Below are positions 9,191-57,042 of a stretch of DNA of 64,000 bases, one piece after another. Source of the stretch: Candidatus Aenigmatarchaeota archaeon (GTDB lineage Archaea; Aenigmatarchaeota; Aenigmatarchaeia; GW2011-AR5); assembly GCA_018304605.1 (NCBI GenBank), contig JAGVVU010000034.1, positions 3,555 through 67,554 of the forward strand, in the 5' to 3' direction. The notes under the pieces are model-generated. The model saw only the letters and a list, made by a program, of their open reading frames with translations, made no database searches and was not told the DNA's origin. Numbering within the stretch: position 1 is the first letter of the stretch; each line of letters opens with the position of its first letter. Position numbers and translations under genes: made by a program.

Positions 9191-9793
9191 ATGATTTTCG
9201 ACAGCAAGGACGACAAGGTAAACAGGCTGAAAAAGGACGTGCATGACATGGAGAGGCGCGTGGAGAGCAGCCTGCAAAAGATGAATGAGACAATAAAGAC
9301 GCTGAACGATATAATACTCCGCCTCCAGAGGGAGAATGTCCAGCTGAGAAGCGAGAGGGATTTCCTTGTGGAGCGGCACAAGAAGATGCTGAAGCGCGTT
9401 CCCGTCCCGGATCTTGCGGCAGAGATAAACGAAAAGCTCGTAAAACCGGCAGCAGGAAAGATAAGGGAAAATGCGGAATTCGTTCAGCTCCTCGCGAAGG
9501 AGGGCTTTGTGGAGCTCAAAGATCAGGGGCCAAAGCGCCAGGCAGTCGCGAGGGATCCGGTCAGCGAATTGAAGAGTACTATAATCGACGTATCCAGCAG
9601 GAGCCATGGGAAGTCCATAGACAGCCTTTTCGAGATAGTCAGCAGGGCGGGCAAGATAAGGGCCGACGATGCAGCCAGAAGGCTGAATGTTCACGAAGTC
9701 CAGATAGAAGAATGGGCAAAAATACTGGAAGACCATGAAATGGTTACACTGAAAAAATCCCCGATGGGCAAGATGGAAATCGTAAAAATCTAA
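9191..9793 (+). CDS. Coiled-coil hypothetical protein
   Basis: 200 aa with heptad-rich N-terminus and balanced composition. Confidence 0.5.
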   Translation: MIFDSKDDKVNRLKKDVHDMERRVESSLQKMNETIKTLNDIILRLQRENVQLRSERDFLVERHKKMLKRVPVPDLAAEINEKLVKPAAGKIRENAEFVQLLAKEGFVELKDQGPKRQAVARDPVSELKSTIIDVSSRSHGKSIDSLFEIVSRAGKIRADDAARRLNVHEVQIEEWAKILEDHEMVTLKKSPMGKMEIVKI

Positions 9794-10149
9794 GACTTGC
9801 AAACAACGCATCCGTCAACGCCATGGAATTTTCCAACCTTTATCAGGCCATTGCTGATTATAAGATTTGAGACCGAGCACATTTTTGTCGAGAGGTCTTC
9901 GGAAGTTATCTGGTTCTGATGCAGCTTGCCGCTTATCTCCTTTATTTCATCCTGCACGGCCTTGTTCTCCAAAAAGCCGCTCTTTCCGCGAAGCTGCCGA
10001 AGATACTGCGATACGGCAGGCTGGCTCACGTCAAGCAGCTTTGCCACCTCGCCCTGATTAAGATTATAGCTGGCTATCAGCTCCTTAGCTATTGCTGCTC
10101 TAAGCGTAGGCAATATATCATGGACAACAACCTCGCAAACGGTTTTCAT
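9790..10149 (-). CDS. HTH DNA-binding regulator with C-terminal Cys cluster
   Basis: LNQGEVAKLLDVSQPAVSQYL helix-turn-helix. C-terminal GCVVCKS. Confidence 0.6.
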   Translation of the reverse strand: MKTVCEVVVHDILPTLRAAIAKELIASYNLNQGEVAKLLDVSQPAVSQYLRQLRGKSGFLENKAVQDEIKEISGKLHQNQITSEDLSTKMCSVSNLIISNGLIKVGKFHGVDGCVVCKS

Positions 10150-10263
10150 GCTTAATCAACCCCTTTCTTGATGACCATTATTTGATTGTGCGAAGACTTT
10201 AAATCTATAAGCCTGTTTTAAAAAATATGACTCCGTAGAAACCCTGTGAGAAAATCCCCATAT

Positions 10264-10689
10264 TTATTGCACTCGCCCCGTGCATGTTGCCGAATCCCTG
10301 TTGTTATCTATCCCATTCATCATATCGTAGAGTATTGAGATTTTCGAGCTGAACATCTCGTCCGCTTTCCTGCCGGTGGGGTCATGAGACGACGTTATTA
10401 TAAACTTGTCCCCTGCCGCGACATCGACGCTGGAAATTCCTATATTGACGCCGTCGACCGTCGCGCTATTGACGCGTATGCCGCTCACTCCGTTCAGCAG
10501 CTCAATTGCATAGGAATCCTCGGTCATCTTTTGGTTCAGAAAGACAAAGTACTGGAAGCCTGCGCACGTCGACCTCGTTTCGGTCCCCGGTAGGATTATC
10601 ACGACAAAAACAACGGCGATTATAACCGCCATAAGGGCAACCCAGGTGTATTTCACCAGCATGTCGGGGCTGAATTTCATATCCATCAT
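10264..10689 (-). CDS. Membrane-anchored hypothetical protein
   Basis: N-terminal transmembrane helix. 141 aa. Confidence 0.45.
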   Translation of the reverse strand: MMDMKFSPDMLVKYTWVALMAVIIAVVFVVIILPGTETRSTCAGFQYFVFLNQKMTEDSYAIELLNGVSGIRVNSATVDGVNIGISSVDVAAGDKFIITSSHDPTGRKADEMFSSKISILYDMMNGIDNNRDSATCTGRVQ

Positions 10690-10773
10690 TTACTCACCAT
10701 ATTTTTATAGTGAACCCACAAAAGAATCCGGACACGTCTGTGGGTTCACATACAGTGCACAAGGAAGTAATAA

Positions 10774-11616
10774 TCATCCGGGTTGTTTCCTTGCAGCACT
10801 ATAAGACTGACGTTTCTTTAGCATCAAATATGTGAACAGGCCGCCCAGATTGGCAAACACAAGATTCCTGAGGAACTCCAGTATTATCCATGTCGTGAAG
10901 GCGGCCGAGACGGGCAGCCACGTGATATATGCGCCAAAGAATTTCGAGCCAGTCAGGGATGCTGTTGTAGACTCCACGCGTTCGTCAAGCATTTCTGGGG
11001 ACATGCTGGACGCGCCCGGCAAAGACAGCGCAAGCGTCCGGACTGACTCCTTCAACTCCTCCTTGAACGAGGATTCGTATTGCGCCTGACTGGCCAATAT
11101 GGAAGAAAACACTCCCAGAGAGATGATTATATTGACGATAAGGAGGGTCTTTCCTGCTGTGCTGGAACCGACCCTGAAATTTACCCATTTTTTCATTTCC
11201 CTGGCATACATGCCTGAAAAACGGCTCGCGTAGGAGCATGACAACAGGGCAATTGCCAGGAATACGCCTGCTAATGTCGGAAACAGGACTACTGCAAACA
11301 ATGCGCCTATAAACCCCGAAATGATTCCAGCCCTCCACACATCCTTTCTGCTGCCGAAATATGCAAGAATTGCTATTGCGAGCGTCAGGAAAACCAGAGA
11401 CATGACAACAAACGCGAAGGGCCTGAGAAGCATTCCCAGTGCGTTGAACGTGTCTGTTGATGCTGAGAAAATAACTGATTTTATTATATGATTGTAGAAA
11501 TTAACAACTGAGGCTGTGGAAAAGCCGCTGAACCTGAGGAACAGCAGGAAAGCGAGGAAGGAAAGCGAAGTTAGCAAGACGACTTTTTTCCCTGCCCTGT
11601 CCAGATTTAGTCGCAT
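10774..11616 (-). CDS. Polytopic membrane protein
   Basis: 280 aa with six or more hydrophobic helices. Last gene of the surface-protein operon. Confidence 0.5.
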   Translation of the reverse strand: MRLNLDRAGKKVVLLTSLSFLAFLLFLRFSGFSTASVVNFYNHIIKSVIFSASTDTFNALGMLLRPFAFVVMSLVFLTLAIAILAYFGSRKDVWRAGIISGFIGALFAVVLFPTLAGVFLAIALLSCSYASRFSGMYAREMKKWVNFRVGSSTAGKTLLIVNIIISLGVFSSILASQAQYESSFKEELKESVRTLALSLPGASSMSPEMLDERVESTTASLTGSKFFGAYITWLPVSAAFTTWIILEFLRNLVFANLGGLFTYLMLKKRQSYSAARKQPG

Positions 11617-11622
11617 AATCGA

Positions 11623-12882
11623 TCATTTCTTTTTTCTAAGGAAACCTTTCTTTTCACCACTGACGGATGTGTTTCGCACGTCATATGACTTCTCCAAAAA
11701 GCTTGATGCTTTTGACTTTGATTTTTTCGGCGGCAGAACCAGGTAGATGACGAACACCACAACGCCCGCGATGACCGCAAGAATTATCATGAACGTGAAA
11801 TCCGCCGGCGCGCCAGCTGAAGGCAGCTCTATGGAGCCTGCCTGGCTTGATGCCGCGTCCAGAAGTCCCCTGACGTCATCCAGCAGCTGCTGTGCAGTGA
11901 AGTAGTCTTTTGCCTCAAGAGACTGATTGACCTGATAAAGCTTGCTTCTTGCATTCAGCAGCAGGGACTCGATCTCCTCGACATTGGCACCGGCAGACTT
12001 GAGGGAGGTAACGTTTGATTCGAGTTCGGACAGCAGAGACACATATCTGCCATATTCCGGGAAAATCTGCTCCTGAACTGTCTGGTTGCTGGGCTTGAGG
12101 TTGATGCTGAACGACTTGCTCGCCCTGGCCGATGTGTTGTGAGTGGTGACTTCGATGGTCACGGCATAAGTCTTCACATCAGCGCTGGATGGCGCCGTAA
12201 AATTTATAGTGAAACCGGTCTCGTTGTTCTTCACGCTCTGATTCCATTTCACAGGCGTTACGGATGCCCAGGTCAGTGATGAAGAAAGCGTTATATTGTA
12301 GAGCGTCGCGTTGCCGTTGTTCTTTACCGCCACCACCCTCACCACTGATTCTCCCTGAGTCATTTCAAAGTTCAGAGGAGCCGAGGTAAATATAATCGAT
12401 GATGTCCTGCTTGTCGTGTTTGTCGTGGACGAAGATCCACTGCTGCTTGAGCTGCTCGAGCTGCTGCCCGTGCAGTTGCCGGGCGTGCCGAATTCAGAGG
12501 GACAGGTCTGCCCGGAGCTGCAATTGTCCACCCCAAGCCATGCTCCGGAGCTGCATGCTCTGGTCGTTATGTTTGTCACGCAGATGTTGGTGCCTGATGA
12601 GTAAGCGCTGTTGTTGTGATAACAGTTGGTCGTGCTGCTTGCATTGCACCAGCCGTAGCTTGCAGATCTGCTAAAATTATCGTAATCGAAGAAGCATGCA
12701 AGGCCAACTCCCTGAGGCATACAATTCGAAGTTGAATTGCACAAGTCCACAGTGTATGCCCAGATGCCTGTGACCGCAGACCGGTTGCCCGAATTCGAGA
12801 AATTTATGGTACCTGAAAAATCCGCAAAAGCAGCTGCGGAGAATAAAAGTAAGAAAATTGCAGATGCGCTTATTGCCCTCAT
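11623..12882 (-). CDS. Secreted surface glycoprotein with Ser-rich linker and C-terminal transmembrane anchor
   Basis: Signal peptide MRAISASAIFLLLFSAAAFA, poly-Ser tract, many N-x-S/T sequons, and a C-terminal TM helix followed by KKSKSK. Confidence 0.6.
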   Translation of the reverse strand: MRAISASAIFLLLFSAAAFADFSGTINFSNSGNRSAVTGIWAYTVDLCNSTSNCMPQGVGLACFFDYDNFSRSASYGWCNASSTTNCYHNNSAYSSGTNICVTNITTRACSSGAWLGVDNCSSGQTCPSEFGTPGNCTGSSSSSSSSSGSSSTTNTTSRTSSIIFTSAPLNFEMTQGESVVRVVAVKNNGNATLYNITLSSSLTWASVTPVKWNQSVKNNETGFTINFTAPSSADVKTYAVTIEVTTHNTSARASKSFSINLKPSNQTVQEQIFPEYGRYVSLLSELESNVTSLKSAGANVEEIESLLLNARSKLYQVNQSLEAKDYFTAQQLLDDVRGLLDAASSQAGSIELPSAGAPADFTFMIILAVIAGVVVFVIYLVLPPKKSKSKASSFLEKSYDVRNTSVSGEKKGFLRKKK

Positions 12883-12887
12883 TTCAA

Positions 12888-14246
12888 TCACGGAATCGCT
12901 CGGAATAAAAAGTTGTATATCGTAAACCAATTGCTCGAAATTGCCGTGCCTGAAGGGATTACCATCCTCAAAATCACGGTGAATGTGGAAGCCGTGCTAG
13001 CCGTGTGATTGATGCCCGTAGTCCCGTTGTACCTGTTTAGTATGTTGAACCTGCCGGTCGTGTTGAAGTTCGTCTCGTTCCTCATCGTCGCATAGAATTC
13101 CGTCTCGCTTGAATTTGCCAGGCTTATGTTGTTGACGCCGTCCGACCAGTTATACATCTTGAACTGTATTATTCCGGGCACGGCCGCGCTGAAGTTGAGC
13201 GTGAAATTGAATTCCCAGTAGTCGGAGCCGTTGATTATTGCCGCGCCTTTTGTTATCATGACAGACGTGCCGTTTATTATGGGCTGCGTGGTTATGTTGC
13301 TATAGGTGCCGAGAACAGAAGACGATACGTTATACATCGTCAAATCGCTGCTGTATAGCGTTGAATTGACTGTTGATGTCGGAAGTGCTGAAAGAGAGGT
13401 ATTGACAAGCATTGTAACAGAAACATTGGCACCTTTTGCCAGAGTTGGCGTGTAAGTCAAATTGACCTCAGTAGTACCTACGTTGGTGCAGACGTCCGTG
13501 GCAACAGGACAAATGTCTATGCTTCTTGCCAGGTCGTTAAGCGTGACGCCTGAAATATTGACGAGAGTATATCCCGAAGGGAGTGTTATCCGTGTCTTGT
13601 TGACTGTCGTGACACCAGTGATCGTGAAATTATACACTATCGTCTGGTTCGTCACGTTCGTATCTACATAATTAGGCCGCATCGTCACGTTCGCATGGAC
13701 ATCCCTTGTCTCGCCCAAGCCTGAAGATATCGGGAAGCTGCCTGAAACCGTCTCATTGGTGCCTATGCTTGCCGCGCTCGTTATGTTCGCAGAAATATTC
13801 GCGATCACGGGAGCTGTTATGTTGAGACGGAATACGACCAAGAGCCTGACTGCATTGGCCGTGCCAACCTGTATCGGGCCTACGGTAATATTTGTCAAAT
13901 TTATTCTCGTCTGATTGCCGAATGTTATGTTGCTGCCGAAGAGCGTCGTGTCATTCGAATGAAAAATCCCGTCCCCGTCCGTGTCATTGTATATGCTGAC
14001 ATTCACGACGAAAGCGGAAATATTATTGGCTTCGACGGTAGTATAAGGAGTGCTGAAATTTACCAAAATCGAGGTCAGGTTGATCGTGGAATTGGCAGCG
14101 AGCAGCGATATGTTGAGCATCGTGACGTTGTCGCCGGAATTAATATAGCGGGGAACCTGGCTTGTCCCGCTGACCGTCAAAGTGGCGTCTGCGAAGACTG
14201 GGCTGACCAGAAATGCCAATACAAGAACAACTATGAGCGCTTTCAT
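12888..14246 (-). CDS. Secreted, heavily N-glycosylation-sequon-rich surface protein (S-layer candidate)
   Basis: Signal peptide MKALIVVLVLAFLVSPVFA. About 60 N-x-S/T sequons in 452 aa. Confidence 0.65.
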   Translation of the reverse strand: MKALIVVLVLAFLVSPVFADATLTVSGTSQVPRYINSGDNVTMLNISLLAANSTINLTSILVNFSTPYTTVEANNISAFVVNVSIYNDTDGDGIFHSNDTTLFGSNITFGNQTRINLTNITVGPIQVGTANAVRLLVVFRLNITAPVIANISANITSAASIGTNETVSGSFPISSGLGETRDVHANVTMRPNYVDTNVTNQTIVYNFTITGVTTVNKTRITLPSGYTLVNISGVTLNDLARSIDICPVATDVCTNVGTTEVNLTYTPTLAKGANVSVTMLVNTSLSALPTSTVNSTLYSSDLTMYNVSSSVLGTYSNITTQPIINGTSVMITKGAAIINGSDYWEFNFTLNFSAAVPGIIQFKMYNWSDGVNNISLANSSETEFYATMRNETNFNTTGRFNILNRYNGTTGINHTASTASTFTVILRMVIPSGTAISSNWFTIYNFLFRAIP

Positions 14247-14270
14247 TAAGATATCATTGTGGTGTGGCGA

Positions 14271-14280
14271 AATATAAAGA
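14271..14280 (-). promoter_or_regulatory. TATA box (TTTATATT) about 24 nt upstream of the ATG of the surface-protein gene
   Basis: AT-rich octamer at the expected archaeal promoter spacing. Suggests a leaderless or near-leaderless transcript. Confidence 0.4.
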
Positions 14281-14289
14281 TTTCAGTGT

Positions 14290-14655
14290 TTACGCGACAT
14301 TTCTTCTTGCTGCATGGCCGCTTTTCCTGGCTGTAAAAGGCTCTATCTTTATGGACCTGCCGTTCGTAACGTTCACAAAGTCCGCGTCAAGATAGTCAGA
14401 AAACTGCCTGTCGAGCAATACGCAATGACCATGCACTTCAAATTGCCGGCTGGCATAGTTAAAATGCAATTTTCCGCTGCCAGAAAGCTCCTTTTTAAAA
14501 AAGTTATCCCACTGTCCCGGATACAAGAGAGTCATAGAAGTGGCATCCCTAGTCATGTTTCTCACGGCCACTATGCTGCCATCGCCTGGCCCGAACGGCA
14601 GAAGAATCCTGCTGCTACCATCCCTGCAATATTCGACTCTTGCTATATACTCCAT
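14290..14655 (-). CDS. Hypothetical protein
   Basis: 121 aa with diverse composition. The overlapping plus-strand ORF is judged spurious. Confidence 0.35.
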   Translation of the reverse strand: MEYIARVEYCRDGSSRILLPFGPGDGSIVAVRNMTRDATSMTLLYPGQWDNFFKKELSGSGKLHFNYASRQFEVHGHCVLLDRQFSDYLDADFVNVTNGRSIKIEPFTARKSGHAARRNVA

Positions 14656-14668: not shown

Positions 14669-14844
14669 CGTCCCCGGCGCGATTCGAACGCGCGACCCCC
14701 TGCTTTCCCGGACGACGCATTCGAAGAATGCGTCAGTCTATCTCTCAGATATGATGTCATCATCACACAACCCGCCGGCTGTGCTCTGTTCACCTCCATA
14801 CCTGATAGGAGGCAGGTGCTCTATCCAAGCTGAGCTACGAGGAC
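14669..14844 (-). tRNA. tRNA-Arg(CCU) with an intron of about 100 nt in the anticodon loop region
   Basis: Acceptor GTCCTCG/CGGGGAC. D arm GCTC-AGCTTGGATA-GAGC. Anticodon stem CCTGC/GCAGG with loop CTCCTA+A. T arm GCGCG-TTCGAAT-CGCGC. The intron contains the perfect hairpin GACGCATTCTTCGAATGCGTC. Confidence 0.7.
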
Positions 14845-15176: not shown

Positions 15177-16933
15177 CTAATTTATGAATACCTTCAGCTT
15201 GTCATTCACCAGCGCCCTGAGAACTTCCTTGCCGACCTCGCTGTCCTTTGCCACGCGTATCTGGCTGTTCTTGCCAAGAGTAGCTGAGAACAGATATTCG
15301 TCCTCGACGTAGAAATTCACTATCTTGCCCGGGCGCGCCTCCAGTGTGAAGACGATGTAGGCGCCCGTTTCCTCTTTCTCGAAATCAACCGCATTGCCCA
15401 AAGTGGCTACCTTTGGGGAAATCTCTATGCTTATTCCAAGCTTCTCCTCGAGCGCTTTTACGGTTTCTCCGCCCTTTCCTATGATTCTCGGTATCACGTC
15501 ATTTTCGACCCTGACTATCGCCTTGTTATCGCCGACTATCTCCACGACTGCCGAGTGGTCGAAGCGCCGCAGCTCAGCAAGAAGCTGCTTTTTCGCCAAT
15601 TTCACCAGCCCAGATTCTTTCTTGCTGGCATCTTTCACTGGGATTATCACGTTCTCCTCGCCGTACGTGTAAATTTCGTATTCCAGAGCCGCTGTTTCAA
15701 AGTTCTTCACCTCAACCACCGGACGAGCCAGGTCTGCTTCTGTCATTCCAGTCGGGGTCCGGACAGTCAGCGAAAGCATGTAAACCTTTTCAACACGCCC
15801 CTCTTTTATGTAGATTATCGTATCGATTATGTGCGGAATCATCCCAAGTTCCACGCGGCCGATGAATCGCTGTATGGCATCTATCGGCTCTGTCGCGTGC
15901 ACCACGCCTATCATGCCTATGCCTGCCAGCCGCATGTCGGCGAATATCTCGAAGTCGTTTGTCTTCCTGACTTCGTCGTATATGGTATAATCAGGCCTTA
16001 CAAGCAGTAGCATGTCAGCAGTGTTTTCGAAAGATCCCTTGAGCTTTGCGTACTGCGTTATCTCAGGCTTTACCTGAAGGTCGCGCGGAGATTCCATGGT
16101 CTTGACTATCTTTCCTCCGGACTCCAGAAATTCGGCTATGCTCGCGGCGAAAGTACTCTTGCCAGAGCCGGGTGGACCTGCTATAAGAACGCCGTCGACC
16201 TTTTTAGACAGCCTTTCCTTAAGCTTGTCAGAGAGCTTGTACTCGTCAAGCGTCAGCTTCGTTATTGGCCTGACCACGGTTATCTCTATCCCGTCCGAAA
16301 ATGGCGGACGTGCAATCGCGATTCTCATGTCGCCAAGCTGGACAACGCTGGCCGTATAGCCGCTGACTTCCACAAATGAGTCATCCTCGTAGCGCGCGGC
16401 ATCCATTATCTCCTTTATTATTGCCTCCAGCTGCTCGGGCGTGGTGCGCTCCTCAGATATCCTGACAAGGTCAAAACGGCCCGGCATTCCTCGTTTTGCC
16501 ACTGGCATTGTGCCTTCCTTGAGATGCAGGCTCATGGTGTCCGGAGTCATCATACCGGACAATGCCGTCGTTTTTTTCTTCTCATACGGCTTGAAGTATC
16601 GCGACTTGACGCCCTCGGCCTCCGCGAACATGTACTGGACATAATCCGACGTGTATATGGTAGCGGGCCGCTCTTTGCAAGCTGGATCTCCTCATATGTC
16701 TGGCGACGCCCGCTTTTCGTCATCGTCACGTTGCTGTAGAGCGTGCGCAGCTTCTTCATCTCCTCAAGACCCTTGAAGCCGATTTCCCGGCCCTTGGATG
16801 CCTGAGCACGCAATTCCTCAACAGCAAATTCCGGAATGATTATTTCCGCTTCTGCTATTTCCCCTTTCTCTATCAGATCAGTAAGTATGCCCGATATGAG
16901 CACGCTCGTGTCTGGTACTATTTTTTCTTTCAT
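15177..16933 (-). CDS. PIN-domain / PilT-type ATPase / KH-domain protein (COG1855 family), interrupted by a frameshift near 16640-16690
   Basis: N-terminal PIN motifs (IVPDTSVLI) are in ORF 16550-16933. The PIN C-terminal motif ATIYTSDYVQ, the Walker A motif GPPGSGKST and the KH domain are in ORF 15177-16631, in another frame. Confidence 0.65.
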
Positions 16934-20520: not shown

Positions 20521-21312
20521 GTGATAACTATGGAGAGTGTGTACTTAGGAATTAGAAAGAATAAATTGAAGGCTGTAAAACTTCAAGAGAATAATAAATA
20601 TTTAGGACTTGCTTCTCTTACAGAAGGTTTCAAAAATTCAAGTGTTAGGTTACCAACAAAACTGACTCCGGAATTGGGGGAAGAAATCGGCATTCATATA
20701 GGTGACGGACATTTATCATCTAATCGTTACAGGTACAAACTTTTCGGTAACATAGACGAATCTGAATATTACGAGAATTTTGTGGCTGGATTGTACCAAA
20801 GGCTATACAACATAAACGTGAGATTAGAAAAAAGAGAAAGAGATGGTAATATCATAGGGTTTGAATTTTGTTCTAAACCCGTATGGATTTTCAAAACAAA
20901 AACCATCGGATTGATAACAGGTAGAAAAGACAATGTGTCAGTTCCCATCCTAATTCTAAACTCTAACCCGGCAATTTTGCGGGCATTCGTAAGAGGCTTA
21001 TTCGATACAGACGGGAATCTTTATTTCCAAAGCAGATATGGCTACAAAAACTACTATCCTCTTATTTCTCTTACATCCAAGTCAAAAGATTTATGCAAGT
21101 CGACATGTGAAATTCTGACAAAACTTGGATTCAAGGCAAATTATTACACAACACGAAATGAGGCAGTTGTCCAATTATATGGATATGAAAATCTTTTGAA
21201 ATATGCAAGTGAAATCGGGTGGCACAATACTAAACAGCTCAATAGATTCCTTGATTGGAAAAAACGCTTTCCGAATCTTGTGGAAAAGAAAAGGGCAGCT
21301 ATCGGGATTTGA
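20521..21312 (+). CDS. LAGLIDADG-family (double-motif) homing-endonuclease-like protein
   Basis: Motifs IGIHIGDGHL and LRAFVRGLFDTDGNL. Paralogue of the gene at 57008-57757. Its last 19 nt are antisense to the 3' end of tRNA-His. Confidence 0.7.
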   Translation: MITMESVYLGIRKNKLKAVKLQENNKYLGLASLTEGFKNSSVRLPTKLTPELGEEIGIHIGDGHLSSNRYRYKLFGNIDESEYYENFVAGLYQRLYNINVRLEKRERDGNIIGFEFCSKPVWIFKTKTIGLITGRKDNVSVPILILNSNPAILRAFVRGLFDTDGNLYFQSRYGYKNYYPLISLTSKSKDLCKSTCEILTKLGFKANYYTTRNEAVVQLYGYENLLKYASEIGWHNTKQLNRFLDWKKRFPNLVEKKRAAIGI

Positions 21313-21386
21313 ACCCGACCCGAAAGCTTTCTGTCAGCATAAGCTGGCCACAGGCTTGCATGCTACCAAGCTACACTATAGCTGCC
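21294..21386 (-). tRNA. tRNA-His(GUG) with encoded G-1 and an intron of about 19 nt after position 37
   Basis: G-1 opposite discriminator C73. Acceptor GCAGCTA/TAGCTGC. D arm GTGT-AGCTTGGTA-GCAT. Anticodon loop CTGTGG. T arm TCGGG-TTCAAAT-CCCGA. Confidence 0.7.
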
Positions 21387-36748: not shown

Positions 36749-36897
36749 TGGGCTCGGGCGGATTCGAACCGCCGACCTTTGCCGTATCTTCAACCAATCC
36801 TTTGCGTTCTTTCCGTTAACGCTTTCTTTAAAGAAGGGGTTAGTGAAGGCAACGTCATCTCGTGCCTGATTTTCAGGTACCACTAGACTACAAGCCC
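36749..36897 (-). tRNA. tRNA gene with about 76 nt of intronic insertion (D-loop hairpin insertion CCTGAAAATCAGG plus a further insertion), isotype unresolved
   Basis: Acceptor GGGCTTG/CGAGCCC with discriminator A. D arm GTCT-AGTGGTA. T arm GGCGG-TTCGAAT-CCGCC. Variable loop AGGTC. Followed by TTTT. Confidence 0.55.
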
Positions 36898-37065
36898 GTG
36901 ATTTTCCGTTATTCAGAAAACTTTAAGATAGAAGGGATTAATTTATTATCATGGATCTTACCAAAGAAGAAAAGGCGGCTGCCGCCATTATCGTCGTTGG
37001 ATTTGCCGTGGCGATGGTCTTGATGGGCGTGTTCGCTTTCCAGTTCTAATGTGCTGCAAGGAATA

Positions 37066-37725
37066 TTAGCCCTCTATTACGGTCCCGATTGCCGAGCCCT
37101 TCAGTGCTTTTAGTATATTCTTCGGCTCTTTTCCGTCCAATACAATCGTCTTGATTTTTGCCGAGGAAAGTGCCTGAACGGCAGTCCTGTCCAGGACCCC
37201 GTATTTGTTCGGGCTGCCCTTCACCGCGAGCTTCTTCATGCCGGCAAATGTTATCTTGTCCAGCTTTCTTGCGCTACTGGACTTTTTCGGGTCTTTTGTG
37301 TATATCCCGTCGACGTTCGTCATCTTGATGAAAACATCTGCGCCAATACGCTTGGCTGCGATCGCCCCGTTGGCGTCCGTGCTCCTGCCAGGAACAATTC
37401 CTCCTATCACTCCACTCGTATTTGGCCTGATCTCATCGAGCGAGAATATCGGCTTCATCTTCAACATGGCCGAGAGAAACCTTACATTGGCTTCTATCAA
37501 TTTTATGAATATTTCCTCCTTTTCGTTCCTTGCCAAACCGAATTTTTCTATGGATTTCCCGTAGGCGCGCGTAAGCTTGCCGCCGCCTATGACAATAATC
37601 AGCTGATTTTTCCTTTTTATGCCCTCAAGAACAGGAAGCAGGCGGGAGAAATAAGAAAAGTCGGGGCCTTTTTCGCCGATGGAAACAGACCCCCCGATTT
37701 TTACCACGATTTTCATGCTCTGCAC
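37066..37725 (-). CDS. pyrH: Uridylate (UMP) kinase
   Basis: KIVVKIGGSV amino-acid-kinase fold. Archaeal PyrH length. Confidence 0.85.
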   Translation of the reverse strand: MQSMKIVVKIGGSVSIGEKGPDFSYFSRLLPVLEGIKRKNQLIIVIGGGKLTRAYGKSIEKFGLARNEKEEIFIKLIEANVRFLSAMLKMKPIFSLDEIRPNTSGVIGGIVPGRSTDANGAIAAKRIGADVFIKMTNVDGIYTKDPKKSSSARKLDKITFAGMKKLAVKGSPNKYGVLDRTAVQALSSAKIKTIVLDGKEPKNILKALKGSAIGTVIEG

Positions 37726-39670: not shown

Positions 39671-39806
39671 GGGCCGGTAGCTTAGCTTGGTAGAGCATCT
39701 GTCTTATATGACGTGCTTTGATAATAAACAAAATCAAAGCATTTGGCGTGACATCGTCATTGTCTAAGCCAGCAGAAGGTCATGAGTTCAAATCTCATTC
39801 GGCCCA
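39671..39806 (+). tRNA. tRNA with anticodon UAU (Ile, AUA-reading) if spliced at the canonical 37/38 site; intron of about 63 nt
   Basis: Acceptor GGGCCGG/TCGGCCC with discriminator A. D arm GCTT-AGCTTGGTA-GAGC. Anticodon stem TCTGT/GCAGA with loop CTTATA|intron|A. T arm ATGAG-TTCAAAT-CTCAT. The intron has an 8-bp hairpin GCTTTGAT/ATCAAAGC. Confidence 0.6.
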
Positions 39807-39815
39807 CCTTTTTTA

Positions 39816-43265: not shown

Positions 43266-43868
43266 ATGAGATTCAGCAAGGGTCAGCAGGAGGCGTTATC
43301 TGCCGTACTGATTTCGGGCATACTCATCGGCGTAGTCGGCTCTGTCTATTTCTGGGGCGTGCCGCTGATACAGAAGAACAAAGACATCTCGCTGCTTGAA
43401 ACCTCAGAAAGTTTCATGAGGCAGCTTGACGAGAAGATCAGGTCAGTGGCAAACAATGGCGGCAGGGACCAGATAGTCATCCCAGTCCCTGGAATATTAA
43501 GCTTTGACGGGGCGGAAGTGAAGCTGACAATAGAGACACAGGGGACGATATATGCAACGGACGCGGAGATTCCGCTGGGCAGGAACACCCTGGAGCAGAG
43601 CGGCGGGGGAACATGGGGTATCGACGACCCAGTCATCTTCAACGTGAAAAGCGTAAAGATGGGGGAGAACAACTACAGGAACGAATACACGCTCATCTAT
43701 ATTGAGTTGAGGAACGAGGACTCATTGAGGGACTTCAAGATCGGGCTTACGGGTCCCAGCACCTCAGGCGGCCAGGACAATACGATAATAATGGAGAGCC
43801 AGGGAGACACGACAGCCGAATCTGCAAGGACCTTAATAACTAGCAACGTGAAAATTTCCGTCATATAG
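43266..43868 (+). CDS. Pilin-like protein with class III (type IV prepilin-like) signal peptide
   Basis: MRFSKGQ|QEALSAVLISGILIGVVGSVYF N-terminus. Confidence 0.5.
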   Translation: MRFSKGQQEALSAVLISGILIGVVGSVYFWGVPLIQKNKDISLLETSESFMRQLDEKIRSVANNGGRDQIVIPVPGILSFDGAEVKLTIETQGTIYATDAEIPLGRNTLEQSGGGTWGIDDPVIFNVKSVKMGENNYRNEYTLIYIELRNEDSLRDFKIGLTGPSTSGGQDNTIIMESQGDTTAESARTLITSNVKISVI

Positions 43869-44089
43869 AACAAATTATATTTCTGGCTCGCCGCCCGCTT
43901 TTCTTTAATCCAAAAATCTAGCTTCTTAGAAATGCTCAATGAAAACCAGCAGGGAGGGTATTGTGCTTTCACAATACCCTCTAGTTACTAACCCTATTGT
44001 GGATACACAATAGGGTTCCTGCTGGTTTTCTCATAGGCTTTCTAAGAAGCTAAAAATCTTAATATCCCGCCATGAAGAAACAATGAAAT

Positions 44090-44530
44090 ATGAAGGGACA
44101 GTACAGGATAATAAGCGAGATCATACTTTTCGGCGTCGGAATCCTCATCACCAGCTATGTCATAATAAATTTCAACAACCTGCAAAGCGCCGTGAAGGAA
44201 ATAACCCTGGACGACCAGATGAACAGCGTCGCGGATGTCGTGTCCGCGGCTGTGATCAAGGTCGCAAGCGCCGACAACGCATCAATAAGGCTTGTCATAC
44301 CCGACAAGATATCAGACAGCATCTACAGGATCGCAATAAGGGACGCCGACGGCGGCAAGCTCGTCATAAGCAAGCTTGACGGAACAGCATCCGTCGAGAG
44401 AAAACTCTTTAATATAAACTACGACAATACAATTAGCAGCAACAACGTAATCAACAACAGCGAAGTAGTGAGCAGCGCCCAGTTCATAGAGATTGTCAAG
44501 AACGAGAAGATTACGATTCTAAGGCGGTAG
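44090..44530 (+). CDS. Pilin/FlaG-FlaF-like protein with class III signal peptide
   Basis: MKGQ|YRIISEIILFGVGILITSYVI N-terminus. Confidence 0.5.
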   Translation: MKGQYRIISEIILFGVGILITSYVIINFNNLQSAVKEITLDDQMNSVADVVSAAVIKVASADNASIRLVIPDKISDSIYRIAIRDADGGKLVISKLDGTASVERKLFNINYDNTISSNNVINNSEVVSSAQFIEIVKNEKITILRR

Positions 44531-44532
44531 TC

Positions 44533-46251
44533 ATGGAGAAAAAACTTTTTTTCAAGGTAAAGGGCGGCCGGGGCTTTGCCGTGAAGCCAAGACAGGAGGA
44601 GGCCGTAAAGACGGGGCTTATCGAGTCATCAGCTGCCTTGGTGCCTGCCGCACCTATTCAGATGCAATCATTTCATCAGTTTTCGCCCCGCGTGTACTCC
44701 GTTGAAGGTGTGGCAGTGCCGGACATAAAAAGCGAGAAGATACCAGTAATAGATACGGAAGAGATTCAGCGCACCAACATAAAATATCCGCTTATACCAT
44801 CGAATCCCGCGAAAGGCGAGAGGATTTTTGCCTACGCACACATATACTTCGACAGGCGCTCGGGCGAGCTTGTCTATGACGTGATCGAGCCGCCTGTATC
44901 AGACCAGCAGCTGCTCAATTCCATAAAGGAATACATAGAGGAGAAGCTGGACATCAACTTCAGCCAGATCAGGAAGGGCGACGCAATAAGCTATCTTAAT
45001 GTCGTCTTCTCGAAAGCATTGTCGTACTTTAATACAAAGCTTGACAAGGAAGCAACTGATATACTGAGATATTACGTTGTGCGGGATTTCATAGGGTTGG
45101 AGAAGATAGAGCCGCTCATGCAGGATAAGTACATAGAGGACATCTCATGCGACGGAGCGAACATACCCATCTTCGTTTACCACAGGCTCCCGCAATTCGG
45201 ATCTGTAAAAACATCCATAACGTTCAACAACAGAGATTTGCTGGACTCTTTCGTGAACAAGCTCTCCGAGCGGTGTGGGCGGACGATATCCGTGGCAAAA
45301 CCTCTTCTTGATGGAACTCTGCCAAACGGTTCGAGGCTGCAGGCCACATTGGGCAGTGACATTGCCCGCAACGGGTCCAACTTCACCATCAGAATGTTCT
45401 CAGACAAGCCCATGACGCCTGTGGACCTGATAAAATCAGGAACATGCGACCTCAAAATGATGGCATATTTCTGGCTCCTGATAGAGCACGGATCGTCTGT
45501 TTTGATATCCGGCGGCACGGCTTCCGGCAAGACATCATTGCTGAATGTGCTCTCGCTTTTCATAAAACCTCAGATGAAGATCATAAGCATCGAGGATACC
45601 TCTGAGATAAGGCTTCCGCACATGCACTGGGTGCCGGAAGTCGCAAGAACTCCCATATCCGAGGAGGGCAAGGTGGATATGTTTGAGCTGCTGAGAGAGT
45701 CGCTAAGGCAGCGCCCTGACTACATAATAGTGGGGGAAGTAAGGGGCAAGGAAGCGTACGTGTTGTTCCAGCAAATGGCTGTCGGTCATCCGGGTCTTTC
45801 GACCATACACGCCGAGAACTTCTCAAAGCTCTTCGACAGGATGACCTCGCCGCCCATCAGCCTCCCTCCAAATCTCATGGAAAACCTCGACCTGATACTT
45901 TTCATGAAGCGCGTCAAGCAGGGAAGAAAATACAACAGGCGAATTTTTTCTGCCGTAGAGGTCGCCGGTTTCGACAGCGATGCAAAAATGCCGATAACCA
46001 ACGAGGTGTTCGGATGGGATGCCAAGAGCGACGAATTCAAGACGCTGAAAAAGAGCTCGCTCCTCAAGAAGATATCTGACATGACAGGTCTGACGGACGA
46101 ACAGATAGCAAAAGAACTGGAGCGGAGGGCTAAGGTGATAAAATGGCTCGTCAGCAAGGACATAACCGACTACAGGAAGATAGCCTCCGTCATCAGCATG
46201 TTTTATCTTTCTCCTGATTTTCTCATGGGCCGGATTGAGGGAGAAGTATAG
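44533..46251 (+). CDS. flaI: FlaI/ArlI-like secretion ATPase (VirB11/PilB superfamily)
   Basis: Walker A GGTASGKTS. Asp box. His box. 572 aa with FlaI-type N-terminal domain. Confidence 0.85.
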   Translation: MEKKLFFKVKGGRGFAVKPRQEEAVKTGLIESSAALVPAAPIQMQSFHQFSPRVYSVEGVAVPDIKSEKIPVIDTEEIQRTNIKYPLIPSNPAKGERIFAYAHIYFDRRSGELVYDVIEPPVSDQQLLNSIKEYIEEKLDINFSQIRKGDAISYLNVVFSKALSYFNTKLDKEATDILRYYVVRDFIGLEKIEPLMQDKYIEDISCDGANIPIFVYHRLPQFGSVKTSITFNNRDLLDSFVNKLSERCGRTISVAKPLLDGTLPNGSRLQATLGSDIARNGSNFTIRMFSDKPMTPVDLIKSGTCDLKMMAYFWLLIEHGSSVLISGGTASGKTSLLNVLSLFIKPQMKIISIEDTSEIRLPHMHWVPEVARTPISEEGKVDMFELLRESLRQRPDYIIVGEVRGKEAYVLFQQMAVGHPGLSTIHAENFSKLFDRMTSPPISLPPNLMENLDLILFMKRVKQGRKYNRRIFSAVEVAGFDSDAKMPITNEVFGWDAKSDEFKTLKKSSLLKKISDMTGLTDEQIAKELERRAKVIKWLVSKDITDYRKIASVISMFYLSPDFLMGRIEGEV

Positions 46252-46431
46252 AAGACACGAATTTTTGCGGATTCACTCCCAATGACATCTGATGTGCGTG
46301 CCGTTCCGCCTTGTGAATCTTCAATTCTTGCCTGTATTCTCGCATCTGCGGTCTTTAGACCGCAGCATTCAATGCATTATAGGATAAAACCTTAATATTC
46401 CCCCGTGCGCAAATCATTATTGGTGCTGTAA

Positions 46432-47267
46432 ATGAGCTATGCTGAAGTATCCTACAGGCTTTTCGGCGGTCTGGTAAAATACGCCAAGCCTTATTTTCTG
46501 GACATAAAGGAAGAGCTTCGCCAGGCCAACATCAGCTACACGCTCGAGGAATATCTTTCGATAGCGCTCCTCACGACCGCAGTCACGTTCATCATGGAGG
46601 CGATGATGCTCTCGTTCATATTCGGCCTTCTTGTCTCCCCGATAATAGCCGTAATACTGGCATTGACGCTTTCGATGACGATATCAGGCATACTGTTCTT
46701 CCTGTTCTACTCGTACCCGACAACCGCCTCGAAAAGCAGGGGGACCAAGATAAAGAAGATACTGCCATTCTCCGTTTCCTATATGGCGACGATAGCGAAG
46801 TCGAATGTCCCTCCCATAACCATATTCAAGACACTGAGCGAGTTCAAGGAGTATGGCGCATAGTGAGGGATGTGGAGTTGTTCGGCATGACAACTTCGGC
46901 AGCCATAAAGAAGCAGGCAAAGATAACACCGTCGAAAGAATTCAGGGATCTCCTCTTCGGCATAAATACAATGATAACAAGCGGCGGCAACCTCGGGTCG
47001 TATCTCAAGGACAGAAGCAATGAGCTGATGGGTGACTACAGAAGAAGGATAAGAAAATACTCTCAGGACCTCTCGCTTTATGTCGAAATGTACCTAACAC
47101 TCATAATAACAGGCTCGATATTCTTCATAGTCCTCTCATCCATCATATCGACCATCTCCGCCGGTCTGGGCACGATCCTTGTCCAGACGTTCGTTGTATT
47201 CATCCTCCTGCCGCTGCTTTCCATAGGCTTCATAATACTCATCCGTGCCACGTCCCCGACAGGCTAG
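46432..47267 (+). CDS. flaJ: FlaJ/TadC-like membrane protein, N-terminal domain, interrupted by TAG and a frame change at 46861-46865
   Basis: Two ORFs (46432-46863 and 46863-47267, the second with a GTG start overlapping the TAG) together form one TadC-like polytopic domain. Confidence 0.55.
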
Positions 47268-47342
47268 CATCACGCATAAATTACCCGGCTGAATTGTGTT
47301 TTTAATCCCAGCGCCCAATTATAATGATATGCTCTGATATAA

Positions 47343-47437
47343 CCCACATCTAAAGATGTGGATTTCTATGAGCATAGCATCCAGAATGCATTGAGTTTCA
47401 TCACACGACTAAAGTCGTGTGTTTTCAATGCATTCTC
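47343..47437. repeat. Structured repeat element, copy C (divergent): hairpin cccacatctaaagatgtgg, then 11-bp outer stem gaatgcattga/tcaatgcattc enclosing the inner hairpin cacacgactaaagtcgtgtg
   Basis: Same architecture and conserved GAATGC/GCATTC and CTAAAG loop as copies A and B. Sits between the FlaJ N-domain and C-domain genes. Confidence 0.7.
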
Positions 47438-47463
47438 GGATAATAAGCGGGGTCGTCCAAAGC

Positions 47464-48429
47464 ATGAAAAAAAGCTACAGAACAAAGGAGTCTAGGATCG
47501 GCAAAGAGCGCAAAATCCTGATAGTTTCTGTCGTCATTTTTCTGACGCTTGTTTCAGTCTCTGTCTATATAGGCAGCATTGCTCTGATCGCCAATATGCT
47601 CTTCCTTGGGATGCTCATAATAATCGTGCCATACAGCCTGTACAAATTCTTCCGCCTCAAAAAAATCAGGTCCTATGAGAATGACTTTCCTAATTTCCTG
47701 AGAGACATATCAGAAAGCCTGCGCGCGGGGCTTTCACTCATACAGGCGATACAGGCCACATCGAAATCCGACTACGGCGCGCTCACTGGTGAAATCAAAA
47801 AGATGAATAATCAGCTCAGCTGGAATATCACGCTGGATCGCGTGCTCAAAAATTTCGGGACCCGAATCCCAGACAGCAGGATAATAACCAGATCACTCAT
47901 GATAATAGACCAGGCAAACAAGTCTGGCGGCAATATAGAAGACACGATGGATTCCCTTGCAAATCACATAGAGTCGATAAAGGAGGCGCAGCAGGAAAAA
48001 TCCGTCCTGCTGAACCAGCAAGTCCTCATGATGTACGCAATCTTCTTCATTTTTGTCGGCATAACGATTGCTCTCATCAAGTTCCTCATTCCACTCCTGC
48101 AAACACAGTCCCAGACGGGTGGATTCGGCGTGCAGGGCTTCAATCCCAATCCCTGCTCGCTGTGCGGGAATAATCCGGACCTCGCCTGCATGGGTTGCAA
48201 CACGTTCTCAACAATCTCACAGGCTTTCGAGCTTGGCGATCCAAGAGAGGCATCTTCATACTACAAGTCGCTGTTCCTGGCGATGATACTGATACAAGGC
48301 TTCTTTTCAGGACTAATAGCGGGCCAGATAGGCTCCGATTCAATAGCCGTGGGAATCAAACACAGCCTGATAATGCTCCTGAGCGGCTTCATAATTTTCA
48401 TACTTCTGATAAAAACAGGAATAATATGA
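47464..48429 (+). CDS. flaJ: FlaJ/TadC-like membrane protein, C-terminal domain
   Basis: FPNFLRDISESLRAGLSLIQAIQA (TadC signature). Multiple TM helices. Start moved to the ATG at 47464 (RBS GGGG) out of the repeat hairpin. Confidence 0.7.
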   Translation: MKKSYRTKESRIGKERKILIVSVVIFLTLVSVSVYIGSIALIANMLFLGMLIIIVPYSLYKFFRLKKIRSYENDFPNFLRDISESLRAGLSLIQAIQATSKSDYGALTGEIKKMNNQLSWNITLDRVLKNFGTRIPDSRIITRSLMIIDQANKSGGNIEDTMDSLANHIESIKEAQQEKSVLLNQQVLMMYAIFFIFVGITIALIKFLIPLLQTQSQTGGFGVQGFNPNPCSLCGNNPDLACMGCNTFSTISQAFELGDPREASSYYKSLFLAMILIQGFFSGLIAGQIGSDSIAVGIKHSLIMLLSGFIIFILLIKTGII

Positions 48430-48551
48430 CTCTATAACGGAAAAGATGCTTGTTGCGCTCAAGAGATGACAAAAACGGAGAATACCGAGGACGACGCCTC
48501 CTGCGTCGGTCTCCTTTGCGTCTTTTCAACTTGGAAAGAAAGGGGTTTATA

Positions 48552-49067
48552 ATGAAGGGAATTGCCGAACTTGAATTTATCATCTCAGTTTTCGTCTTCA
48601 TAACTACGATATCTTTCGTGACCTTTCTCATAATAAACAACATACCCATACTTCACAGCGCCTCGGTCTCGGACGGCCTGAAATCCAGAAGCTATCAATA
48701 TTCTGAGCTGCTCCTGTTCGACGAGGGCGCGCCGATGAACTGGGAAAATGACCCGCAAAGCGCGGACCGCATCGGCTTGTCTAATGGCAGAAGATATTTT
48801 GCTGACAAAGACAAGATTGATGCGCTCGCAAGCCTCTGCTTCGATTACCAGCTTGCCAAGGAAAAGCTTGCCCTGCAAAAAGAGGATATAGTCATAGAGG
48901 TGTCTTATCTGGATGGAGCGGCAGTGAGCGGGTCCTCGGCAGCAATATGCAAGCCACCTGTCACCACGCAATTGAGGTCGCAGTTCCAGATCACAAGGTT
49001 CGGCGTTCTTCCGCTGCCGGCAGGCACATATGTTGTGAAGATCAAGGTAACAATCATAGGCGACTAA
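48552..49067 (+). CDS. Pilin-like protein with class III signal peptide
   Basis: MKG|IAELEFIISVFVFITTISFV. RBS GGGG upstream. Confidence 0.5.
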   Translation: MKGIAELEFIISVFVFITTISFVTFLIINNIPILHSASVSDGLKSRSYQYSELLLFDEGAPMNWENDPQSADRIGLSNGRRYFADKDKIDALASLCFDYQLAKEKLALQKEDIVIEVSYLDGAAVSGSSAAICKPPVTTQLRSQFQITRFGVLPLPAGTYVVKIKVTIIGD

Positions 49068-49089
49068 AGCAGAAAGAGAGGAATCTGTA

Positions 49090-56784: not shown

Positions 56785-56899
56785 GCCCTGGTAGCTCAGC
56801 AGGTAAGAAGCTAGGCTTCTCTATAAAGAGCGCTTGAGATTTTAGGAATCGGCGAAGCTGTTAACCAAGAGGTCCGCGGTTCGAGCCCGCGCCGGGGCG
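56785..56899 (+). tRNA. tRNA-Asn(GUU) with two short non-canonical introns (about 22 nt in the D-loop, about 20 nt at position 30/31)
   Basis: 73-nt mature tRNA plus 42 nt. Acceptor GCCCTGG/CCGGGGC. D arm GCTC-AGCAGGTA-[AGAAGCTAGGCTTCTCTATAAA]-GAGC. Anticodon stem CTTG[intron]G/CCAAG with loop CTGTTAA. Variable loop AGGTC. T arm CGCGG-TTCGAGC-CCGCG. Confidence 0.6.
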
Positions 56900-57042
56900 C
56901 AAGGTAGCTCAGCTCGGGAGAGCACATAGTGTGAGGAAAACCTCATATTAGCTTAAACGGCTGAAGTTTAGGCAGGAACCGTACTGTAAAACACTGGTTT
57001 TATAGGTTTAAGCTGTCGAGGGTTCAAATCCCTCTCTTCCCA
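56900..57042 (+). tRNA. tRNA-like gene with about 70 nt of insertions; acceptor pairing and anticodon unresolved
   Basis: Canonical D arm GCTC-AGCTCGGGA-GAGC. Stem CTTAA/TTAAG flanked by a 9-bp helix AGCTTAAAC/GTTTAAGCT. Variable loop CTGTC. T arm GAGGG-TTCAAAT-CCCTC. The 5' CGCAAGG does not pair cleanly with the 3' TCTTCCC. Confidence 0.4.

Follow-up and report, generated by a model that had tools for sequence, protein, structure and literature searches.

The window analysed here, a stretch of 64,000 nucleotides (nt) from contig JAGVVU010000034.1 of a Candidatus Aenigmatarchaeota archaeon (assembly GCA_018304605.1), carries on its minus strand a small gene cluster that appears to encode a cell-surface structure. 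All positions below are counted within this window. Gene A (12888-14246) encodes a secreted, anchorless putative glycoprotein of 452 amino acids (aa); gene B (11623-12882) a membrane-anchored partner of 419 aa, counted from its ATG; gene C (10774-11616) a polytopic membrane protein of 280 aa; and gene D (10264-10689) a small, N-terminally anchored protein of 141 aa. These four open reading frames (ORFs) had been picked out in an earlier note written from the DNA letters, which gave the positions of A and B and the 452 aa of A, and all of them were recovered at the positions stated, on the minus strand. We read A, B and C as a lineage-specific, two-component, N-glycosylated coat of surface-layer (S-layer) type in a clade of Aenigmarchaeota, which belong to the DPANN archaea, and we give this reading an even chance. 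Its parts differ in strength: that A and B form an exposed glycoprotein complex is highly likely, and B probably anchors A, while we lean somewhat against the pair being the principal two-dimensional lattice of the cell. To our knowledge, experiments have yet to determine an S-layer or host-contact protein of any DPANN archaeon, and no member of the tiny, symbiotic Aenigmarchaeota is in culture. A conserved gene pair that is single-copy at each recovered locus is an obvious study target in this phylum.

Sequons, secretion signals and predicted folds

Sequons were counted as N-x-S/T, with x other than proline, and compared with two null expectations, namely residue shuffles of the same protein and the reversed motif [ST]-x-N. 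Protein A contains 40 sequons, so the figure of about 60 given in the earlier note was too high. The saturation that it described is nevertheless real: the shuffles of A yielded a mean of 12.3 sequons (SD 2.9, maximum 23, n=2000), which places the observed count about 9 SD above expectation, and the reversed motif occurs 8 times. No fewer than 40 of the 52 asparagines of A lie in sequons, and no N-P-S/T is present. Protein B contains 20 sequons, against 7.9 +/- 2.3 in its shuffles and 8 reversed motifs. Expressed per 100 aa, the densities are 8.8 for A and 4.8 for B, whereas all other ORFs of the window have at most 3.2, with a median of 0. All 40 sequons of A lie downstream of its signal peptide, and 19 of the 20 in B precede its transmembrane segment. 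A potential glycan site thus occurs about every 11 residues of A, and this density is conserved throughout the family: in 34 homologues the number of sequons ranges from 29 to 48, and 14 sites are shared by 70% or more of these proteins. As far as we know, the sequon density of A is among the densest reported in archaeal surface proteins. Judging from these counts, A and B are very probably heavily N-glycosylated.

Signal peptides were judged from the sequences, the alignments and hydropathy. The N-terminus of A reads MKALIVVLVLAFLVSPVFA followed by DA, with predicted cleavage of VFA-D after Ala19 (signal peptide aa 1-19), and that of B ends in LLLFSAAAFA followed by DF, with predicted cleavage of AFA-D (signal peptide aa 1-20). 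Both show classical n-, h- and c-regions with small residues at -3 and -1, the motif SPxFA is conserved in the family, and neither contains a lipobox cysteine. If B is read from a TTG start, its ORF becomes 16 residues longer, and the extra residues are placed before the obvious signal peptide. Mature A has a mass of 46 kDa and a pI of 5.15, and hydropathy revealed no hydrophobic segment of transmembrane quality after its signal peptide. In B, a transmembrane segment at about aa 362-383 (hydropathy 3.2) is followed by a lysine-rich basic tail (KKSKSK...KKK). Taken together, the sequences support A and B as Sec-type secreted or anchored proteins rich in sequons. Anchoring by an archaeosortase through a PGF-CTERM signal was considered and rejected, as B has D-x-T before its transmembrane segment without PGF and A has no C-terminal transmembrane segment; C gave no exosortase match at E <= 0.1. 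Elsewhere in the window, a 190-aa N-terminally anchored protein on the plus strand (58063-58635) has the third-highest sequon density (3.2 per 100 aa) and no family match, and is probably another surface glycoprotein.

An AlphaFold2 model of A, built on an alignment of 34 sequences, is all-beta and comprises three beta-sandwich domains, with a predicted local distance difference test score (pLDDT) of 81.7 and a predicted template modelling score (pTM) of 0.72. Domains D1 (aa 20-175) and D2 (aa 176-300) are encoded at 13347-14189 and domain D3 (aa 301-452) at 12891-13346; all three sandwiches are complete, terminal strands included, at high pLDDT. Together with the immunoglobulin-like (Ig-like) domain modelled in B, this agrees with the expectation of beta-sandwich or Ig-like folds in the earlier note. 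In this respect A has the generic traits of an S-layer protein, being secreted, multidomain with beta-sandwich/Ig-like folds, and equipped with many sequons. The earlier note had seen no homology to known S-layer families by eye, and the searches bear this out: neither A nor B matched Pfam or NCBIfam at E <= 0.1, no match of A, B, C or D reached the threshold, and the alignment profiles of A and B found nothing significant among PDB sequences. The matches that Foldseek gave for A in PDB include leg domains of integrins, Ig domains of PrgB, pilins of Gram-positive bacteria and a sialidase N-terminal domain, with the S-layer protein of Nitrosopumilus maritimus at rank 45. We rejected a family assignment from the Foldseek matches in PDB and BFVD, which were generic multi-Ig matches with TM-scores of at most 0.27; low scores of this kind are expected of Ig proteins built like beads on a string. 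The BFVD matches, all generic, gave no sign of a viral origin of A. A weak link exists between D1 and a sialidase N-terminal domain (Foldseek 6mrv, E 2e-6; hmmsearch, E 0.044), and no catalytic domain was detected.

The domains of A differ in their conservation and distribution. Mean identity to distant homologues is 31-32% for D1 and D2 versus 45% for D3, and the invariant columns of the family concentrate in D3, where they include the motifs NG(T/S)DYWEFNFTLN, LRMVIP and a terminal LFRAxP. A word-indexed search with A returned 41 clusters, all of about 410-470 aa, while an exhaustive profile search returned 341 matches, of which about 60 were full-length (about 410-480 aa) and the rest were giant proteins of up to 5449 aa. 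D1 or D2 is repeated up to 26 times in the giants, whereas D3 is confined to the short family of about 440 aa. These distributions suggest that D1 and D2 are widespread, uncurated, cross-domain surface-repeat modules and that D3 defines the A family. D1 and D2 are the variable domains and presumably face outward, and D3 is proposed as the docking domain for B. As for the giants themselves, D1/D2 occur as 5-26 tandem repeats in P0084, P0102, P0111-P0113, P0116, P0119 and P0127 (1300-5449 aa). Some of the giants end in bacterial C-terminal sorting domains like those of the type IX secretion system, while P0112, P0116 and P0127, which are anchored at the N-terminus and reach 6.6-7.7 sequons per 100 aa, look archaeal. 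In a Pfam scan of the giants that share D1/D2, the repeat itself was not covered by a curated family.

Protein B has an unusual layout, in which the poly-Ser linker, the further sequons and the C-terminal anchor with its basic tail are all as the earlier note had described them. The mature protein begins with an N-terminal peptide and a Cys-rich head (together aa 21-138, 10 Cys), followed by a poly-Ser/Thr linker (aa 139-159, SSSSSSSSSGSSSTTNTTS..., encoded at 12406-12468), an Ig-like domain (aa 160-265), helices at aa 266-296, 302-323 and 327-349, and the transmembrane anchor. The overall pLDDT of its AlphaFold2 model is 69, with the transmembrane segment at aa 362-382: the Ig domain is modelled confidently over aa 163-263, the beta-structured Cys-rich head, of which 9-10 Cys are invariant or near-invariant in the family, with moderate confidence, and the linker at pLDDT <50. 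Conservation also covers the first 25 or so mature residues, where G24, T38 and G39 vary little or not at all, yet they too have a pLDDT <50, as would be expected if this segment folds on a partner. The best match of the Ig domain is of the PapD-like/ASH type (HYDIN 2e6j, TMt 0.75), chaperones of chaperone-usher systems being weaker. Sub-threshold Pfam matches to the CARDB-clan families DUF7507 and NPCBM_assoc reach the level of precomputed hits in four homologues.

The remaining proteins of the cluster are membrane proteins, as the earlier note held for both C and D, with the exception of E. C has at least four strong hydrophobic segments and two weaker C-terminal ones; its family has no Pfam match, and its matches are confined to Aenigmarchaeota. 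We propose that C may be a partner in the membrane that assists assembly or anchoring. One transmembrane segment (aa 15-33) lies near the N-terminus of D, which has Cys at aa 42 and 136; a class III (pilin-type) signal was rejected by eye, since the [KR]-G/A cleavage context is missing. Gene E (14290-14655, minus strand), directly upstream of the A promoter, encodes a cytoplasmic protein of 121 aa that has no Pfam or NCBIfam match. It is a possible regulator, two beta-hairpin-like segments resembling AbrB/SpoVT by eye.

Gene layout, promoter and distribution in Aenigmarchaeota

Genes A and B are separated by 5 nt and B and C by 6 nt, whereas 84 nt separate C and D. This last spacer contains an inverted repeat, GTGAACCCACA-N18-TGTGGGTTCAC (10710-10749, minus strand, read directly from the sequence), which forms a perfect 11-bp hairpin, as well as a TATA-like CTATAAAAAT (10701-10710) and a GGTGA (10694-10698). 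The hairpin may mark a transcript end or an attenuator, and CTATAAAAAT and GGTGA are possible start signals of D itself. An oligo-T run lies 3' of D at 10220-10225. Given the tight A-B and B-C spacers and the long, signal-bearing C-D spacer, A, B and C form one compact unit. The operon of the earlier note is accordingly kept for A-B-C and loosened for D, which may be transcribed separately, and only A and B are linked universally among the relatives described below. Co-transcription of A and B is suggested by their 5-nt spacer and by one conserved promoter upstream of A.

This promoter element, AATCTTTATATT (14271-14282, minus strand), consists of a BRE-like (transcription factor B recognition element) AATC and the TATA box TTTATATT at 14271-14278, with 24 nt between the end of the box and the ATG of A. 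The TTTATATT octamer alone is not significant in the window, where it has 5 matches versus 2.6 expected. The arrangement AATCTTTATATT-N24-ATG is, however, identical in sequence and spacing at locus L004, despite an identity of only 36% between the A proteins, and its counterpart at L005 is AATCTTTAAATT-N23-ATG. At L001, the same box lies farther upstream of A and is followed by a Shine-Dalgarno-like AGGTG. The additional N-terminal residues annotated for A in L004 and P0005 ('MNNLYI...') were rejected, as they are actually the promoter read as protein. Archaeal TATA boxes centre about 26 nt upstream of the transcription start, so a TATA box about 24 nt before the ATG predicts an essentially leaderless A mRNA. 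Its conservation in orthologous loci supports a real promoter with an almost leaderless mRNA, in line with the TATA box that the earlier note had assigned to this cluster.

To describe the distribution of the module, GTDB species representatives were scanned for A, which yielded 27 loci on 27 contigs. Each contig carries one A (27/27), and every named match belongs to Candidatus Aenigmarchaeota/Aenigmatarchaeota, which agrees with the lineage specificity proposed in the earlier note. B comes directly after A at 25 of these loci, two of which (L027 and L029) have a headless form of B, and at the 2 remaining loci the sequence ends at A. The 5-nt spacing persists at A identities down to 29-32%. 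In the sublineage of L001, L027 and L029, A is followed by a headless variant of B (336-342 aa), which keeps the N-terminal motif G-x-L/I-N-x-S...VTGLWG, a Thr-rich linker and the transmembrane segment and is without the Cys-rich head. C follows B in 15 of the loci retrieved (17 counting two duplicate records), about half. In L017, L026, L028, L030, L031 and L034, a polytopic protein of 222-231 aa occupies the C slot; it has four invariant Cys in an external loop, and its start overlaps the stop of B. We rejected it as a diverged C, the hhalign probability being 0.2%. D is 65-73% identical in L004, L006 and L007 and adjoins C only in near relatives and L009, and distant copies of D occur elsewhere in L005 and L014. 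The invariant core therefore consists of A and B, with a slot behind them for a polytopic membrane partner.

The chromosomal setting is conserved as well. The near relatives L004, L006 and L007 share the order HisRS, PINA ATPase, tRNA, (E), A, B, C, (D) and a helix-turn-helix (HTH) gene, and the core order PINA, A, B, C, HTH is also found in L005 and L003, where A is about 32-36% identical; in L003, the 3' end of a tRNA also lies upstream of A. These comparisons support a module that is lineage-specific to Aenigmarchaeota and has a fixed chromosomal position. Its neighbours in the window include genes for AMP phosphorylase, ribose-1,5-bisphosphate isomerase, a PINA-type ATPase and the thermosome, which mark the DNA as archaeal, and the named database matches place it near GW2011_AR5. 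The gene of the PINA/PRK13764-type ATPase (15177-16933, minus strand) lies in two pieces, a PIN-domain ORF (16550-16933) and an ATPase-KH ORF (15177-16631), which share about 80 nt, its orthologues being single ORFs of 597-606 aa; the division reflects a frameshift, an error in the sequencing or a pseudogene. On the other side, a small ArsR/HTH_5-like regulator (9790-10149, minus strand) adjoins the module in L003, L004, L005, L006 and L007 as well, with 39-78% identity and in varying orientation, and is a possible regulator of the locus.

Allele replacement around gene A

The divergence of A does not follow that of its neighbours. Compared with L004 (AR5-like), A is 36% identical, versus 66-88% at the protein level for 12 flanking genes. 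Compared with L006 and L007, A is 82-85% identical, while the flanks, at 76-88%, are no closer than those of L004, and B and C are 58-66% identical. The discordance between A and its flanks indicates that the history of A is incongruent with that of its neighbours. At the DNA level, the tRNA upstream of E is kept, with 87% identity to L004 4787-4952; homology to L004 is then lost across gene E (14666-14282), returns at the promoter and signal peptide (14282-14189), is lost again over A and the first 55 or so codons of B (14189-12717), and resumes at 12717. E is a genuine gene, with counterparts of 31-49% identity preceding A in five loci (L007, 49%; L006, 39%; L008, L009 and L032). A 131-aa ORF upstream of A in L004 was rejected as a homologue of E, being non-homologous, and E is absent from L004. 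The comparison thus reveals an allele replacement, in which the segment from E through A to the first 55 or so codons of B has been exchanged between lineages. The divergence of A fits an exposed, host- or virus-facing surface, and its replacement provides a concrete locus at which to study how viruses or hosts drive changes of the cell surface in symbionts that have not been cultured.

On its upstream side, the variable block is bounded by an intron-containing tRNA gene (14669-14844, minus strand) with a 101-nt intron, which default ARAGORN and Rfam at its gathering threshold missed and ARAGORN with introns allowed found. Splicing at the canonical 37/38 position gives Arg-CCU; the Ser(GGA) call of ARAGORN was not adopted, as a Ser tRNA should have a long variable arm and none is present. 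With introns allowed, ARAGORN also reported further intron-bearing tRNA candidates at 36749-37086 (minus), 39671-39808 (plus) and 56785-56900 (plus), with introns of 252, 62 and 29 nt, and re-called the default tRNA at 21293-21385 as His instead of Pro.

Downstream, the boundary falls within B. We compared pairwise distances among 24 loci by Spearman correlation, a measure in which the pairs depend on one another and for which we claim no P-value. The distances of A D3 correlate with those of the B N-terminal peptide at 0.58 and of the Cys-rich head at 0.49, and partial correlations given the B helices remain at 0.56 and 0.48, respectively. The corresponding values are lower for the B Ig domain (0.33), the B helices (0.38) and even D1 of A itself (0.14), whereas the B Ig domain and the B helices correlate with each other at 0.68. 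The poly-Ser/Thr linker of B thus marks the boundary between two evolutionary blocks, and the covariation of D3 with the B head would fit a contact between them.

A more far-reaching proposal, which we regard as speculative and rather unlikely, is that E, A and the B head make up a mobile specificity cassette, in which the glycan-covered outer domains of A decide host recognition or virus escape in these ectosymbiotic archaea. Whole alleles would be swapped between the intron-bearing tRNA and the poly-Ser hinge of B, and the stalk, membrane partner and promoter would stay fixed. If true, this would be a modular 'swap head, keep stalk' system of surface variation in DPANN archaea.

Another candidate host-attachment structure in the window is a type IV pilus-like locus on the plus strand (43266-50133). 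It contains pilin-like ORFs with class III-type N-termini and weak matches to DUF7289/DUF7266, a PilB3-like ATPase gene (44533-46251), and two ORFs for T2SSF membrane proteins (46887-47267 and 47428-48429) that are possibly one split gene. Two further pilin-like ORFs are also present, one of which (49090-50133) has 2 sequons per 100 aa.

A proposed two-component surface coat, its rivals and known systems

The pair A/B carries the traits by which DPANN S-layer proteins have been nominated and has an outline like that of SlaA/SlaB, and for these reasons we read it as a two-component coat in which B holds A. In the scenario that we propose, a single promoter would drive an almost leaderless A-B-C transcript. 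A would be exported by Sec, cleaved after Ala19 and N-glycosylated at up to about 40 sites, and would have no membrane anchor of its own. B would be exported likewise and retained in the membrane by its C-terminal helix and basic tail, with the three-helix segment, the Ig-like domain and the Ser/Thr linker serving as a stalk that raises a disulfide-rich head off the membrane. D3 of A would dock non-covalently on this head and on the conserved N-terminal peptide of B, while D1 and D2, variable and glycan-covered, would face outward and make up the canopy at the very surface. The part of a membrane partner, for assembly or anchoring, would fall to C or, in other sublineages, to the unrelated protein that replaces it. 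E, A and the B head, as the exposed unit, would be passed between lineages by recombination that has the conserved tRNA on one side and the body of B on the other, so that relatives swap the outer protein much like a surface antigen, and pressure from viruses or from host recognition presumably drives this exchange. In such a coat, A and B would contact each other, be abundant and form a lattice, and these predictions, like the role of C, go beyond what the genes and models display. Lineage-specific surface glycoproteins are expected in archaea, so the module is not categorically new. What goes beyond the routine are the uncharacterised A and C families, the unusual architecture of B, the conserved sequon density and the clearly bounded allele swap.

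Several points weigh against this coat. No ORF of the size or topology of AglB is present in the 64-kb window. The monomer model of B has three antiparallel helices, in a bundle, and no long trimeric coiled coil. With 452 aa and three domains, A is small beside SlaA (>1000 aa), and a potential glycan every 11 residues or so leaves little bare surface for lattice contacts. The covariation of D3 with the B head is equally explained by physical linkage, the segments being contiguous in the DNA. Moreover, Johnston et al. (bioRxiv 10.1101/2024.05.28.596244) proposed other S-layer proteins for the phylum, A0A842Q7F5 (745 aa) and A0A8T5PKF4 (794 aa), both of an MSTP-like class (Methanosarcinales S-layer tile protein) and with predicted hexagonal lattices. 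Should a single genome hold such proteins as well as A/B, the main lattice would not be A/B, which would more likely be an accessory spike or adhesin. From the S-layer or cell-envelope module of the earlier note we retain the secreted, sequon-rich, Ig-like pair, and we regard its role as the S-layer lattice itself as somewhat less likely than not.

The most serious competitor, which we consider unlikely although deserving of attention, is accordingly that A/B is an accessory surface spike or adhesin, that is, a glycan-shielded host-recognition or virus-decoy complex that sits in or through a separate MSTP-like S-layer and is swapped as a cassette. The existence of other S-layer candidates in Aenigmarchaeota would leave room for such a spike, the small size of A and the stalk-plus-head design of B would suit it, and it agrees with the allelic replacement of A, incongruent with its neighbours, and with the occurrence of D1/D2 in giant multi-repeat surface proteins and their weak likeness to a carbohydrate-binding-type domain associated with sialidases. 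However, a single-copy module at a fixed core locus throughout the clade is what one would sooner expect of a housekeeping part of the envelope than of an adhesin, and hypervariability does not distinguish the two, as true S-layer genes are commonly hypervariable. Should MSTP-like proteins form the lattice, A/B would become a candidate for attachment to the host, arguably the more interesting outcome.

Two other explanations appear far less probable than these. A might be the subunit of an extracellular fibre built by strand donation, as in archaeal threads, bundling pili or chaperone-usher pili, with B and its PapD-like Ig domain as a membrane-bound chaperone or anchor. The Foldseek matches of A to the Gram-positive pilins EbpB, SpaD and T6, those of the B Ig domain to the chaperones FimC, Caf1M and FaeE, and the conserved terminal strand of A (...YxxLFRAxP) point in this direction, and archaeal threads are likewise heavily N-glycosylated Sec substrates (PMC9715654). 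Yet the TM-scores are low and generic for Ig folds, and the best match of the B Ig domain is the ASH domain of HYDIN and not a chaperone. A has three domains, and its first and last strands lie inside complete sandwiches at high pLDDT, whereas donor-strand filaments call for an incomplete Ig fold with a free donor strand, and the subunits of threads and bundling pili have one or two domains; true chaperones are soluble with two Ig domains, whereas B has a single one and a transmembrane anchor. No usher-like gene is present, and we judge a fibre very improbable. Hardly to be expected, too, is a non-structural function of A, such as glycan binding or nutrient capture, in which A would be a glycoprotein released from the cell or held there loosely, and B, C and D would be unrelated membrane proteins that happen to lie nearby. 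It would be compatible with the absence of function-defining homology for A, B, C and D and with the weak likeness of D1 to a sialidase N-terminal domain, but the 5-nt adjacency of A and B persists to A identities of 29-32%, the covariation of D3 with the B head argues for a functional pair, and no catalytic domain was detected. We therefore keep to the two-component coat and compare it with systems already described.

The most generic likeness is that of the Ig-like domain of B (aa 160-265), which has the fold of CARDB, NPCBM_assoc (NEW3), DUF7507 and PapD-ASH domains, a common module that implies no specific function. The archaeal thread (Saci_0406) and bundling pili resemble the module in being Sec-exported, densely N-glycosylated beta-sandwich proteins encoded beside small partner genes; they differ in that their subunits are single modules joined into filaments by donor strands, whereas A is a complete three-domain protein with a transmembrane-anchored partner. 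The MSTP-like candidates of Johnston et al. share with A the phylum and the proposed cellular role. Their class is marked by tandem beta-sandwich domains of DUF1608 type, a length of about 750-1000 aa and orthologues across DPANN archaea and class I methanogens. Being 745-794 aa long, of DUF1608-type fold and predicted to form a p6 lattice, they are competitors and not relatives of A, which had no match to DUF1608 at E <= 0.1 and did not have Methanosarcina acetivorans MA0829 among its top 50 Foldseek matches in PDB.

Closer in concept are the S-layer candidates of other DPANN archaea, NEQ300, Micr_00292 and Nanobdella MJ1_0160, the last with MJ1_0707 as its putative anchor (bioRxiv 10.1101/2023.10.27.564410). 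They were nominated by a signal peptide, Ig-like folds, many sequons, the lack of an anchor and a separate anchored partner (bioRxiv 10.1101/2023.10.27.564410). Like A/B, they are lineage-specific, without homology to classical S-layer proteins, and pair an anchorless subunit with a separate transmembrane-anchored one. Unlike A, with 452 aa and 40 sequons, they have about 1000 aa and about 15 sequons, their genes are not reported to be adjacent, and they are backed by very high expression, whereas A is known from sequence and models.

The closest parallel in outline is the SlaA/SlaB S-layer of Sulfolobales, in which the order slaA-slaB and the general plan of SlaB are well established. There, as here, the first gene encodes an anchorless multi-beta-sandwich protein that is heavily N-glycosylated (in A, as predicted), and the next one a protein with a Sec signal, one or more beta-sandwich domains, a helical stalk and a C-terminal transmembrane segment, as in B; in both systems, the two genes are likely co-transcribed. 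The Sulfolobales system has been described in PMC11329633. A and B share no sequence similarity with SlaA and SlaB and are known from genes and models, and SlaA is larger than A, with >1000 aa and about six domains against 452 aa and three. Where SlaB has a long trimeric coiled coil, the helices of B are modelled as a three-helix bundle. A Cys-rich head and a poly-Ser linker are further features that set B apart, and the A-B pair has a third, polytopic membrane gene attached to it.

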